From Acaryochloris marina S15 (GTDB taxonomy: Bacteria; Cyanobacteriota; Cyanobacteriia; Thermosynechococcales; Thermosynechococcaceae): a DNA stretch of 32,000 bases. This document shows positions 20,847 to 23,800 of this stretch, piece after piece; the stretch's first letter is position 1, and each line of letters begins with the position of its first letter. A program made the translations under genes and the position numbers. Location of the stretch: contig NZ_CP064924.1 of NCBI RefSeq assembly GCF_018336915.1, positions 240,001-272,000 of the forward strand, read 5' to 3'. The notes under the pieces were generated by a model that was given only the letters and a program-made list of their open reading frames with translations, was not told where the DNA came from and made no database searches.

Positions 20847-23800
20847 ATGAAAGCTCTCAAGGGATTTTGGCAGTTTCTCAACACGGATGTACGAGATATC
20901 CCTTGGGGGGAAGTGGCCCAACAAGGCATTGAAGGCATGAAGGCGTTGCCGGATGCTTCAAAAGCTTGGCAGGACAATGCCGATAAGGTTCAACAGCTTG
21001 CCCCTTATTTGCAAAAGGCAGAACCCCTGATCAAAGCCCTGGATACTCCAGTGACAAAGTTGGCTATTTCTGGGCTGCCGTTTGTATCTGTTGGCATAAA
21101 CTTGCTGAAAATTGGGCTTGACTTGGCAAAAGTGGAGCCGACTTTCGAGAATTCAGTCGCAATTGTCGCCCAACTCGCCTATCTCCAGAGTTTAGAAGCG
21201 GTGCTGGAGCAACAGGATGAGCAGATCAAAGCAACACTAGCGCAGCTATCTCTCAAGGATGTTGTGGAGAAACAGCTCGACAAATTTTATAGAAAGGAAT
21301 TGAACCTCACTGAGGCAAAGACAGCTACTACCCAATTTCGAGAATCCGTATTAGCCGAGAAGTTTGGAACAGCTTTGATAGAACAGTTGCAACAGTGCGG
21401 ACTGTACAACAGCCAAGCCCAACGAGTAGCAGATCAAGTCTTGTGGGGAAGTCATCGGTATTTCCATCTGGCTATTGCAGAAGCTGGGGAAAGTGTGAAA
21501 CCTTTGGCAGAGTTTTACCGTACTGGTGGGCAACAGGAGCTAGAGCGCTATACGGCTATTGACGAGTATTTAGAAAAACGGATTAAATCCACCCCGCAAG
21601 AGCAAGTATTTGACGAGAGTAACCCTAGGGTGTGCTTTCAAGACATTTATGTACGGCTAGAGGTGCAGCCCTTAACCCAGGATGGAAAGGTAAAACGTGA
21701 TGTCAATCCCATCTGCAGTCATGAGTGGACGAGAAAAACTTTAGACCAGCCAGCCAACCTAACTCGAAAAGTGATGTTTATGGAAGGTGAGGCAGGCAGG
21801 GGGAAGTCTGTATTTTGTCGCATGATTGCCAATTGGGTATGCTCGGAGTTTGGAGATGCTTTTATTCCCTTGCGGATTCGGCTACGAGACTTACGGACAT
21901 TAGCAAATAACCTAACGAAAACCCTAGAAGACTGCCCAGATTTAGAGCAAGTGAATTTCGTGCGTGGGGAATCTAATTGGTTAGCGGATAAAAACACGCG
22001 ATTTTTGATTATTTTGGATGGCTTTGATGAACTCTTGTTAGAGGGGCGAGCCACGGGTGGTTTAAAGGAGTTTTTGCAACAGGTAACGGATTTTCAGTGG
22101 CGTAGCCATCATCAATTGTTGGTAACAGGACGCCCCTTAGCGCTGCAAGGAATCGATCGGCTGATCACCCAAAACAAAGACTTGGAGAGGGTGCGACTGG
22201 AACCCATGGGAGATGGGTTGAGGGAATGCTGGCTGAACAAATGGCAAGCCCTATTTGGAGAAGACAAGGTCAATCAGTTCAGGGAGTTTTTGACGGCCTG
22301 TCCCAAAGACATCACGGATACTCTAGCCCGTGAGCCGCTGCTGCTGTATTTGCTGGCGCGGCTCAATCGAGAGGGGCATCTAACTCAAGGGATGTTTGCC
22401 GATACTCAAACGGGTCGCCCTCAGGATACTCAGGCTAAGCTGCGGATCTATCGAGCAGCGGTGGATTGGGTGCTGGTAAAACAGCGGCAGGATGAGAACT
22501 TGCGGCTCTGTGGATTAGATAACTTGGAAGATTTACGGGAGATACTGCAGGAAGCGGCGTTGTGTGTGGTGCAGTCTGGCAATGAAACGGCCCGACTAGA
22601 AATGGTAAAGCAGCGGTTTAAGGGCAGCAGCAATCCCATCGCTGAATTGCTAAAGCAAGCCCAGGAAACCACTGGGCAATCAGAGGACAAGGCACTGAAT
22701 AATTTACTGACCACTTTTTATCTTAAACCGGGAGAAAGAGATCAACGGGGTTCAGTAGAATTTGCCCACAAGAGCTTTGGCGAGTATTTATTTGCAGAGC
22801 GATTACTGATTGCCTTTGAAGCCTGGACGGAGTTAGATAAACGACAACGGTTTCGGTTAGATGAACGAGCCCTAAATGAACAGATTTATGACGTATTAGG
22901 TTATGGCGGCCTGAGTCAAGAAATTGTCGCCTATTTATGGGAGCTGCTAGATGAGAGCAACATTGACCGTGTAAAGCTATTCAAGCGACTCAGCAATTTC
23001 TATAGCCGCTGGTGCCAAAACGAATTTTTGGATGCTTCCCCAAACGAGAATCTTCCCCAGAAGAAACTGATACAGCTGCTTGATCAGGAGATCCCCACTG
23101 GATTGAAGCAAGTGGATGTATTTACGGGGCTGAACGTGATGATTTTTCTGTTTAAGCTACATGCATCTGCGCAGCCAGAGGACTATCCCCATTCCAGAGA
23201 CGATACACCTCAACCCGATATCTATTTTTATCCCTGTGGTGAACCTGATACAGAAAGCTTTCTAGCAGACCGTCTCCTCAATATTATTCATTCCGCAGAT
23301 GCACTTAAAACAGGGATTTTTACCACTACGATTGGGCCTTATCTCAGCCGCGCCGACCTCAGCCGCGCCAACCTCCGCAGCGCCGACCTCAGCAGCGCCA
23401 ACCTCTTCAGCGCCTACCTCTTCAGCGCCAACCTCCGCCGCGCCGACCTCAGCCGCGCCGACCTCAGCAGCGCCGACCTCAGCAGCGCCAACCTCTTCAG
23501 CGCCAACCTCAGCCGCGCCGACCTCCGCAGCGCCGACCTCAGCCGCGCCTACCTCAGCAGCGCCTACCTCAGCCGCGCCGACCTCCGCAGCGCCGACCTC
23601 AGCAGCGCCAACCTCATCAGCGCCGACCTCAGCCGCGCCGACCTCCGCAGCGCCGACCTCAGCAGCGCCGACCTCCGCAGCGCCGACCTCAGCAGCGCCG
23701 ACCTCAGCAGCGCCGACCTCAGCCGCGCCAACCTCAGCCGCGCCAACCTCAGCCGCGCCAACCTCTTCAGCGCCGACCTCTTCAGCGCCGACCTCTTCAG

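Follow-up and report, generated by a model that had tools for sequence, protein, structure and literature searches.

Gene and Surroundings

The window, i.e., the whole stretch of 32,000 nucleotides of Acaryochloris marina S15 DNA that was analysed, includes a gene for an NLR-like STAND protein of 1095 amino acids, encoded by an intact, single open reading frame on the forward strand. The features of the gene and its product are listed in Table 1. The first-pass annotation had placed the end of the gene at 23339, which is only where the C-terminal repeats start; the frame continues to 24134. Met1 and Trp8 are near-invariant in the family alignment, which supports the start codon. The upstream intergenic gap measures 146 bp, and a promoter-like site upstream of the gene (20787-20815) is weak and not above chance.

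Table 1. Positions of the gene and of the features of its product in the window; residues are those of the 1095-aa protein.
Feature	Residues	Position	Strand	Evidence or remarks
Whole gene, NNH3-NACHT-pentapeptide NLR-like STAND protein	1-1095	20847..24134	+	Single open frame; Pfam domains
NNH3 N-part	1-100	20847..21146	+	Amphipathic helix, low-confidence helical stretch, kinked hydrophobic helix
Pfam NNH3 match	49-258	20991..21620	+	PF22735, E 2.4e-53, 181.7 bits (cut-off 27)
Hydrophobic stretch	72-94	21060..21128	+	Segment quoted in the first-pass annotation
NNH3 C-part, helical bundle	101-248	21147..21590	+	pLDDT 82-96
Lead-in to NACHT	~249-310	21591..21776	+	Motifs SID.YL, P.E.VF and DIYV.L; beta strands in the model
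NACHT NTPase core	309-466	21771..22244	+	PF05729, 36.2 bits (cut-off 26.7)
Walker A, GEAGRGKS	314-321	21786-21809	+	
Walker B, LIILDGFDE	387-395	22005-22031	+	
TGRP motif	427-430	22125-22136	+	
Pentapeptide-repeat region, presumed sensor	~831-1035	23337..23951	+	PF00805
Tandem array encoding the repeats		23343-23905	+	15 bp x 37.5; 89% matches (Tandem Repeats Finder)
Acidic C-terminal tail and stop codon	60 residues	23952..24134	+	

The gene is located on a plasmid, which also carries conflict-type genes for an NB-ARC STAND protein, a kinase, a CHAT protease and a two-partner secretion system. In Acaryochloris sp. 'Moss Beach', two insertions between conserved flanks disrupt the ortholog on plasmid pMB02, and the homolog on pREB8 resides in a different genomic context; the gene is therefore an accessory one. 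In the source genome, 23 matches to NACHT exceed the Pfam cut-off.

Domain Architecture

The predicted protein consists of an N-terminal domain, a NACHT core and a repeat region, and the NLR-type order of these parts, proposed in the first-pass annotation, is borne out by the Pfam matches. By these matches, the gene almost certainly belongs to the NNH3-NACHT-pentapeptide family, catalogued as NACHT clade 9. The NTPase motifs are intact and conform to GxxGxGK[ST] (Walker A) and hhhhDGhDE (Walker B): Gly317, Gly319, Lys320, Asp391 and Gly392 are invariant across 47 full-length relatives. PADLOC gave no match for the gene, and the NCBIfam matches were to pentapeptide families only, apart from a weak match of the NACHT region to DS8_antiphage.

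The N-terminal domain had been given as 310 amino acids long; it actually comprises some 250, residues ~250-310 forming a conserved lead-in to NACHT. In two relatives (P0141 and P0149), NNH3 is parted from NACHT by an acidic, Pro-rich, low-complexity disordered linker of 370-620 amino acids, and the lead-in sits after this linker, directly before NACHT. Since it stays with NACHT in these long-linker relatives, we do not count it as part of the N-terminal domain. DSSP assigns strands within the lead-in, at residues 253-263 of the predicted model.

The pentapeptide-repeat region matches PF00805 in seven stretches (E 1.8e-41, 139.7 bits), and the array that encodes it is near-identical internally at the DNA level. 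Between close homologs, no other part diverges as much: its identity is 45-61%, compared to 53-89% in NNH3 and 62-94% in the NACHT core. The combination of fastest divergence with internal near-identity suggests that the C-terminus is the sensor. The tail that follows the repeats is acidic (15 Asp/Glu versus 7 Lys/Arg) and is 38-75% identical in seven out of nine compared homologs; for the other two, no alignment of the tail was found.

The N-Terminal Domain

NNH3 stands for NACHT N-terminal helical domain 3. Whereas the first-pass annotation recognised no motif in the N-terminal domain and called it uncharacterised, most of it matches the Pfam model of this named family (Table 1). The second of these statements nevertheless holds in part, in that we found neither an experiment nor a functional paper on NNH3 or clade-9 proteins among the papers searched.

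Two AlphaFold models were generated, one of residues 1-310 (46 sequences) and one of residues 1-250 (111 sequences), with pTM values of 0.70 and 0.75. The helical character surmised earlier is in agreement with the prediction, which is all-helical up to residue ~246. The models set apart a mobile N-part (pLDDT 38-85 in one model, 52-77 in the other) from a conserved C-part bundle, and this finer domain map is new here. The helix at residues 2-12 in the N-part is amphipathic, with a family-averaged hydrophobic moment of 0.53 and a mean hydrophobicity of 0.09; at least 90% of the family retain its Trp8. Over the complete domain, the conserved residues are Trp8, Pro68, Gln109, Tyr112, Ser115, Phe164, Ser167, Arg204 and Tyr205. 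Those from Gln109 to Tyr205, joined by Ala111 and Thr/Ser202, are the domain's most conserved residues and lie in the C-part, which is retained in every architecture variant. The most distinctive conserved features are those of the first ~100 residues, namely the Trp8 helix and a hydrophobic helix kinked at an LPF motif.

The NNH3 alignment includes no conserved set of acidic, His or Cys residues, and the domain is therefore read as non-enzymatic. A HEPN-type RNase was considered and ruled out, since the conserved Arg204 is not followed by a His that is conserved as well.

Fold comparisons with the two models, in which residues 1-100 are of low confidence, yielded no solved relative: the best E-values with Foldseek against the PDB were 0.4 and 0.48, and the best Z-scores with VIA-align against 48,161 representative chains were 6.6 and 6.0. 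There were no HeLo/MLKL/CC-type chains among the top 50 VIA-align rows for each model or the Foldseek matches listed. The best rows (a haloacid dehalogenase cap, TFIIA, RbcX, dynein linker segments and nuclear-receptor ligand-binding domains) were set aside as generic helical packing, as Z-scores of at most 6.6 or E-values of at least 0.4 are in the noise range for helical models. A profile search with the family alignment against PDB sequences gave a weak match to the P-loop part only (e.g., Avs2, E 0.19). The nearest cluster in the ESM Atlas that is not of NNH3 type carries NNH1/NNH7 (score 0.87), which we mention as a lead only.

Family Variants and Subfamilies

The NNH3-NACHT-pentapeptide layout is shared by 45 close homologs in Acaryochloris and other cyanobacteria. 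PF22735 occurs in 70 out of 401 cyanobacterial species genomes (~17%), spread over 39 of 156 genera, and NNH3 is found at the extreme N-terminus in all of the 150 representatives listed for the 202 matching clusters. In addition to the long-linker relatives, there are proteins (P0142 and P0162) in which NNH3 is joined directly to pentapeptide repeats, without NACHT. In one other (P0157), a PNP_UDP_1 nucleoside-phosphorylase effector cassette replaces the first ~100 residues of NNH3; this fusion was seen only once, in a metagenome-assembled genome, and extra effector domains are rare in the family. By these architectures, NNH3 behaves as an autonomous N-terminal module, or head.

A six-frame search of the source genome (7.1 Mb, 99% complete) for PF22735 found no second NNH3 beyond the one in the gene itself, and no second copy of residues 1-100 was found in that genome either. 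Furthermore, no gene is common to the neighbourhoods of eight loci of the subfamily to which the gene belongs. With a single NNH3 copy and no conserved neighbour, NNH3 does not appear to be a homotypic adaptor.

We divide NNH3 into two subfamilies by genomic context and by the hydrophobic helix, a division that is new here. The gene in the window is a member of subfamily B, which has Trp8, a hydrophobic helix with the LPF kink, and neighbours that vary from locus to locus. Subfamily A, which dominates the Pfam NNH3 model, is a syntenic chromosomal gene without the hydrophobic helix, flanked by a divergent REC-DUF3685 gene in eight and by a convergent Fur-family gene in six of the 20 sampled loci. 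An XRE-like HTH in the first ~40 residues of subfamily A was suspected from the alignment and then dropped, for lack of any Pfam HTH match at E <= 10; neither HTH nor other DNA-binding models match the N-terminus of either subfamily. The subfamily-A gene that lies convergent with a Fur gene could correspond to alr1690 of Anabaena PCC 7120 (alpha-furA antisense transcript), although the reported 2.2-kb transcript is too short for a 3-kb gene.

Function of the NNH3 Domain

NLR-type proteins usually carry their output domain at the N-terminal position. We judge the chances to be even that NNH3 is likewise the output head of a single-gene NLR-like STAND switch. The variable pentapeptide beta-helix would bind a trigger, upon which NTP-dependent oligomerisation of NACHT would gather the N-terminal NNH3 heads, and the clustered heads would provide a non-enzymatic output via induced proximity. 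Within each head, the bundle of residues 101-248 would serve as platform or brace, and the more mobile residues 1-100, in which the amphipathic helix with Trp8 is followed by a hydrophobic helix kinked at a Pro, would be the working end. How the clustered heads would act is a more doubtful matter: direct engagement of a membrane or another hydrophobic target and recruitment of a non-homologous host partner are two options, to each of which we assign the same low probability.

Several points weigh against an output head, among them the lack of a PADLOC match, the single occurrence of the PNP_UDP_1 fusion, and the fact that Kibby et al. count NNH domains as neither effectors nor adaptors. One relative in the NNH3 rows of Table S1 of Kibby et al. 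(bioRxiv 10.1101/2022.07.19.500537) has an EAD10 adaptor ahead of a complete NNH3, and this adaptor would be redundant if NNH3 itself were the output. Moreover, subfamily A is syntenic and lacks the hydrophobic helix, so that the family as a whole may not be one of death or defence effectors.

An alternative, rather unlikely in our estimate, is that NNH3 is a neck or regulatory (autoinhibitory) domain of the NACHT module without a role in output. Kibby et al. (bioRxiv 10.1101/2022.07.19.500537) named NNH3 neutrally, and the NNH domains are absent from both their effector list and their adaptor list. That EAD10 or PNP_UDP can stand upstream of all or part of NNH3 also agrees with a neck, as does the C-part being the constant, most conserved and best-folded piece, and NNH3 has evolved at about the rate of NACHT (identities given above). 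The output would then lie elsewhere. An exposed pentapeptide beta-helix could mimic DNA and in this way sequester or inhibit a DNA-binding protein; according to Kaur et al. [quoted passage not shown] Otherwise, the oligomer itself could sequester the trigger, as may hold for effector-less NACHT proteins of the bNACHT01 type. A rigid neck is, however, hard to square with the disordered linkers of P0141 and P0149, and additional effector domains are rare in the family. In addition, the variability of the repeat array is as expected of a sensor, not of an effector with a fixed target.

The Hydrophobic Stretch and the Membrane

Fungal HeLo and HeLo-like, the MLKL four-helix bundle, plant CC/Rx_N and bacterial Bell are helical, non-enzymatic, membrane-targeting death domains of NLR-type switches, and what defines the HeLo/MLKL/CC type is that the extreme N-terminus forms a hydrophobic or membrane-inserting helix. 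It is unlikely, in our opinion, that NNH3 is a latent membrane-inserting cell-death domain and as such a functional analogue of HeLo, the MLKL four-helix bundle and plant CC. In such a domain, the oligomerised helices 2-12 and 72-94 would insert in the cytoplasmic or thylakoid membrane, with the cell being killed or arrested. NNH3 is a helical domain in effector position without catalytic signature, has neither a partner gene nor a second copy, and starts with a conserved amphipathic helix in which the spacing from Met1 to Trp8 is constant, all of which would suit a membrane-inserting domain; residues 1-100, with their low pLDDT, are compatible with a mobile element.

The hydrophobic stretch quoted in the first-pass annotation is present, but is borderline as a transmembrane segment: its best 19-residue Kyte-Doolittle window scores 1.57, just under the usual threshold of 1.6 for windows of that width. 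In the family, 169 members of which were compared, the score ranges from 0.17 to 2.51 around a median of 1.64. Values of at least 1.6 are reached in 94 of them and of at least 1.9 in 14, and some relatives have a Gly/Ala-rich version of the stretch, which is to the credit of a membrane-inserting domain. Against it, the hydrophobic run is only ~16 residues long, interrupted by the conserved Pro78 and followed by the conserved Lys88, and the family mean hydrophobicity of the stretch is 0.38 (Eisenberg scale). The run is internal, away from the extreme N-terminus, where the helix at residues 2-12 is amphipathic, not hydrophobic; the helix in subfamily A that is homologous to the hydrophobic one is amphipathic too.

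The HeLo, HeLo-like, MLKL and Rx_N models gave no Pfam match with the whole protein at E <= 1 or with residues 1-100 at E <= 10, NNH3 being the one model reported for the N-terminal region, although the HMMER filters may conceal very weak matches there, and no such fold appeared in the top rows of the four structure searches. The earlier suggestion of a HeLo/Bell/MLKL-like membrane effector hence finds a counterpart in neither Pfam nor fold matches, in addition to the borderline hydrophobicity, Lys88 and the amphipathic sister helix. The rows of Table S1 in Kibby et al. that were considered give no transmembrane segment for NNH3 proteins, although the domain key of that table includes one, and the EAD10 in the one relative mentioned above would block a free N-terminus. 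Taken together, these results may be read as neither supporting nor excluding a membrane effector. For subfamily B, we similarly deem it improbable that residues 1-100 are a latent membrane-engaging death module, restrained by the bundle of residues 101-248 and freed by NACHT oligomerisation. If this were the case, NNH3 would be an independently arisen bacterial counterpart of the plant CC, fungal HeLo and MLKL domains, present in about one sixth of cyanobacterial species.

Very improbable is a physiological signalling or regulatory STAND NTPase, in which NNH3 would bind a protein or nucleic acid and which would be no immune or death switch: the synteny of subfamily A with REC-DUF3685 and Fur-family genes is unusual for defence genes with their fast turnover, but the gene in the window is of subfamily B, with unrelated neighbours at every sampled locus, it is on a plasmid among other conflict-type genes, the copy in the sister strain is broken by insertions, the repeat tail is hypervariable and the N-termini of both subfamilies are without a match to HTH or DNA-binding models.

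Comparison with Known Systems

NACHT clade 9 unites proteins with NNH3 or NNH4, NACHT and pentapeptide repeats (Kibby et al., 'Bacterial NLR-related proteins protect against phage', bioRxiv 10.1101/2022.07.19.500537, Table S1). In that table, the NNH3 rows are all cyanobacterial and the clade-9 rows considered are without the bNACHT number of a tested protein. The gene described here has the same three domains in the same order, with all three Pfam models above their cut-offs, and shows no essential difference from clade 9; the copy is plasmid-borne and belongs to subfamily B rather than to the syntenic subfamily A. It is an ordinary example of the catalogued family.

With the experimentally tested bNACHT01, bNACHT11 and bNACHT25, it has in common the NACHT core with the Walker A lysine and the tripartite NLR logic. 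Each of the tested proteins comes from a single gene and needs no operon partner, and no partner is evident for our gene either. Their N- and C-terminal domains are different, and none of the tested proteins found carries NNH3 or pentapeptide repeats; in bNACHT01, the tail is a short SNaCT and no effector is recognised.

EADs are small domains that, by definition, recur as a second copy on a separate effector protein, often encoded by a neighbouring gene (Kaur et al. 2020, PMC7159879). Like them, NNH3 is non-enzymatic and N-terminal on an NTPase-centred conflict protein of multicellular bacteria, but it measures ~250 amino acids and is without a second copy in the genome.

By analogy, NNH3 resembles the HeLo, MLKL, CC and Bell domains in being helical, non-enzymatic and N-terminal in an NLR-type switch. 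It differs in its larger size and in a hydrophobic element that is internal, short and borderline. Cyanobacteria carry many NLR-like genes and, should the NNH3 head prove to be a direct executioner, it would be a new non-enzymatic death domain for bacterial immunity and would sharpen the comparison with the NLRs of plants and fungi.

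A complete gene with an NNH3 head

The gene under study is a single open reading frame that specifies 1095 residues and extends to 24134; position 23339, where the first-pass annotation had closed it, is only the start of the repeats. The order of domains put forward there (N-terminal domain, NACHT, repeats) is correct: Pfam recognises NNH3, NACHT and pentapeptide repeats in that order, and the N-terminal domain, then said to match nothing known, is a member of NNH3.

Features of the NNH3-NACHT-pentapeptide gene and its upstream neighbours (residue numbers refer to the gene product)
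Feature	Position	Strand	Evidence or state
Upstream neighbours: NB-ARC STAND gene, kinase-TPR gene, TPR-like gene	window 16668-20700	same as gene	
Open reading frame	window 20847-24134	+	
NNH3, "NACHT N-terminal helical domain 3" (PF22735)	residues 49-258	+	Pfam E 2.4e-53, 181.7 bits vs cut-off 27
NACHT (PF05729)	residues 309-466	+	Pfam
Walker A GEAGRGKS	residues 314-321		intact
Walker B LIILDGFDE	residues 387-395		intact
TGRP motif	residues 427-430		intact
Pentapeptide repeats (PF00805)	residues ~831-1035	+	Pfam E 1.8e-41

The key NTPase residues show no variation across 47 full-length relatives. Window 23343-23905 encodes the pentapeptide repeats as 37.5 copies of a 15-bp unit that are 89% identical and free of indels; such high internal DNA identity is as expected for an array that expands, contracts and diversifies through recombination.

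Anatomy of the N-terminal head

Two AlphaFold models, one of residues 1-310 (46 sequences; pLDDT 79.7, pTM 0.70) and the other of residues 1-250 (111 sequences; pLDDT 79.7, pTM 0.75), are in agreement and all-helical up to around residue 246, which bears out the helical character noted earlier. Model confidence is high for residues 101-248 (pLDDT 82-96) but not for residues 1-100 (38-85 and 52-77). The section from ~250 to 310 forms short strands in the models and carries the conserved motifs SID.YL and DIYV.L; since it remains immediately before NACHT in relatives with long insertions, it is part of the NACHT module, which leaves a head proper of ~250 aa, not 310.

Residues conserved in at least 90% of the family are Trp8, Leu65, Pro68, Ala111, Tyr112, Ser115, Phe164 and Ser167, while Gln109, Thr/Ser202, Arg204 and Tyr205 are further conserved positions. 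Family conservation in the N-terminal region includes no enzyme-type set of acid, His or Cys residues. A HEPN-like domain was dismissed, as the R-x(4-6)-H motif is absent from the family conservation. The extreme N-terminal helix (residues 2-12), which bears the near-invariant Trp8, is strongly amphipathic (moment 0.53).

The hydrophobic stretch that had suggested membrane targeting is present, at residues 72-94. Its best 19-residue Kyte-Doolittle window scores 1.57, just below the usual threshold of 1.6; for the same region in 169 relatives, the median is 1.64 (range 0.17-2.51), with at least 1.6 reached in 94 and at least 1.9 in 14. On family average, the strictly hydrophobic run covers only ~72-87, with a conserved Leu-Pro-Phe breaking it at 77-79 and a conserved basic residue coming after it at 88, and residues 69-94 have a mean hydrophobicity of 0.38 (Eisenberg scale) and a moment of 0.24. 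To judge from these profiles, the stretch looks more like a helix in the core of a soluble bundle, or an interfacial element at the most, than like a constitutive transmembrane helix.

Four fold searches were performed in all, with each AlphaFold model against PDB (Foldseek) and against 48,161 representative chains (VIA-align). Nothing rose above noise, neither with Foldseek (best E 0.4 and 0.48) nor with VIA-align, where the best Z values were 6.6 and 6.0 and helical models with Z below ~13 may show merely a common arrangement. None of the HeLo, MLKL, plant CC, Bcl-2-like or colicin-type chains was prominent among the fold matches listed. BAK was listed at E 1.3-2.2, values too weak to carry meaning. 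Searched against PDB sequences, the family profile found weak matches, and to P-loop proteins alone. NNH3 thus has no detectable solved relative. The HeLo/MLKL-type likeness proposed for the head was not recovered by sequence search; the fold comparison bears on residues 101-248, residues 1-100 being modelled with low confidence.

Natural variants of the head

In two NNH3-NACHT-pentapeptide relatives, P0141 (1879 aa) and P0149 (1666 aa), NNH3 (1-220) is followed by a linker of 370-620 residues (at ~220-840 and 225-595, respectively) and then by the NACHT lead-in. The linkers are acidic, Pro/Glu/Ser-rich, of low complexity, partly repetitive and disordered; therefore, the head needs no fixed geometry with respect to the NTPase. 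In P0142 (330 aa) and P0162 (468 aa, also with TPR), NNH3 is joined directly to pentapeptide repeats and NACHT is absent; such short proteins may exist in nature or may reflect truncated gene calls. In P0157, from a Symploca metagenome-assembled genome, a PNP_UDP_1 phosphorylase domain stands where the first ~100 residues would be; behind it come positions 51-213 of the NNH3 profile and then NACHT. This fusion is a singleton. The nucleoside-phosphorylase cassette itself (P0157 and database proteins P0196-P0314) is ~75% identical throughout, occurs in filamentous cyanobacteria and has AAA_16, NB-ARC, NACHT, TIR, GUN4, FGE-sulfatase and TPR as partners; it is promiscuous and a clear example of effector shuffling. 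The part of Table S1 of Kibby et al. (bioRxiv 10.1101/2022.07.19.500537) considered here includes one protein with EAD10 ahead of a complete NNH3. Taken together, the variants mark the 101-248 bundle as the part of the head that stays constant, and the first ~100 residues as a position that known effector or adaptor modules can take over or precede.

Distribution and two NNH3 subfamilies

A search with residues 1-300 identified 45 proteins, almost all NNH3+NACHT+pentapeptide, in Acaryochloris and other, mostly marine, cyanobacteria. Exhaustive HMMER screening with residues 1-310 (E <= 0.001) yielded 202 clusters at 50% identity, in which homology spans residues 1-303 and the proteins are typically ~1000 aa long; NNH3 is at the extreme N-terminus among the 150 cluster representatives listed of these 202. 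PF22735 is found in 70 of 401 cyanobacterial species genomes sampled (39 of 156 genera; 1-4 copies each) and in none of 14 control genomes.

We clustered the ORFs in the 20-kb neighbourhoods of 20 NNH3 loci in other genomes and distinguish two subfamilies. For subfamily A loci, the Pfam model gives the best score, and their neighbours were noted at loci L032, L034-L038, L040, L042 and L046: a divergent REC+DUF3685 gene (~590 aa) is common to eight of the 20 loci, a ~630-aa protein (302-712) weakly matching a TPR-protein ARM-repeat model to five, and a convergent Fur-family gene, ~10-300 bp downstream and overlapping in one locus, to six. We read the subfamily A gene as syntenic, chromosomal and apparently vertically inherited. 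Read-through from it would run antisense to fur, a possible parallel to the alpha-furA antisense arrangement known from Anabaena. Subfamily B comprises the window gene and seven other loci, which score best against a profile from the window gene's relatives; no neighbour gene is shared in their 20-kb neighbourhoods. Aligned with each other, A and B are homologous from around residue 49 on, with motifs in common (e.g., L-x-[DE]-V-L-x-x-P-L and a Q-x-A-Y-L helix). The counterpart of the hydrophobic stretch in subfamily A is an amphipathic helix; it follows that the hydrophobic helix and the helix bearing Trp8 characterise subfamily B and do not extend to NNH3 as a whole.

Plasmid context

The window is located on contig 2 of the genome, and its DNA matches Acaryochloris plasmids, at 91% pMB02 ("Moss Beach") and at 83% pREB8 (A. 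marina MBIC11017). The gene has a 146-bp upstream gap of its own. The three upstream genes, all kept on pMB02, specify a repeat-less NB-ARC/NACHT-type STAND protein of 449 aa, a Ser/Thr kinase that begins 4 nt past the STAND gene and has TPRs at its C-terminus, and a protein of 292 aa that matches TPR weakly; downstream, in convergent orientation, lie a TPR-CHAT gene and the operon of a two-partner secretion system. The flanks on pMB02 are syntenic with the window (ParB pair, NB-ARC, kinase, CHAT, ShlB), and the ortholog there (L052; NZ_CP071719.1, 6601-12862) is broken by two ~1.2-kb insertions, at around codons 52 and 331, one of which is an IS4-family element. The pMB02 CHAT gene, beside a DUF6431 gene, is likewise fragmented. 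The pREB8 homolog lies amid other pentapeptide genes and transposases. The S15 genome has one NNH3 copy and 23 NACHT matches above cut-off, several on plasmid-sized contigs. It also holds a 1501-aa open frame (G000:C1:3983128-3984762) with NNH5 (PF22736, E 2.4e-48) and then NACHT.

Possible function and known systems

When close homologs are compared, identity is lowest in the pentapeptide part, at 45-61%; NNH3, at 53-89%, is only a little less conserved than the NACHT core, at 62-94%. This pattern fits a C-terminal sensor with a conserved N-terminal output or regulatory head. We see about an even chance that the protein works as an NLR-like switch: its repeat tail would act as sensor, NACHT would oligomerise, and the NNH3 heads, once clustered, would give a non-enzymatic output. 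Within such a switch, residues 1-100 might directly engage a membrane or a hydrophobic target, which seems rather unlikely, and the recruitment of an unrelated partner has about equal standing; the membrane effector of the first-pass annotation is a minority possibility. The main rival explanation would make NNH3 no more than a neck or regulatory domain, with the output located elsewhere; we consider it rather unlikely too. The supplementary discussion of Kibby et al. (bioRxiv 10.1101/2022.07.19.500537) has NNH domains in neither the effector nor the adaptor list and counts pentapeptide repeats as "antigen receptor type" sensors.

The NNH name comes from that same work. In the portion of its Table S1 considered, NACHT clade 9 includes cyanobacterial NNH3+NACHT+Pentapeptide and non-cyanobacterial NNH4+NACHT+Pentapeptide proteins, the table also giving the variants EAD10+NNH3+NACHT+Pentapeptide_4 and NNH3+NACHT+Pentapeptide+REC; the clade-9 entries examined there carry no bNACHT label of an experimentally tested protein. 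Our literature search found no paper testing an NNH3 protein, and no PADLOC model matches the gene. The gene is genuine and intact; it adds an ordinary member to a catalogued family and is not a new type of system, and the question of NNH3 function concerns the whole family, not this locus. NNH3, and likewise residues 1-100 by themselves, occur only once in the whole 7.1-Mb genome (99% complete), which speaks against a homotypic adaptor of the EAD type in the sense of Kaur et al. 2020 (PMC7159879).
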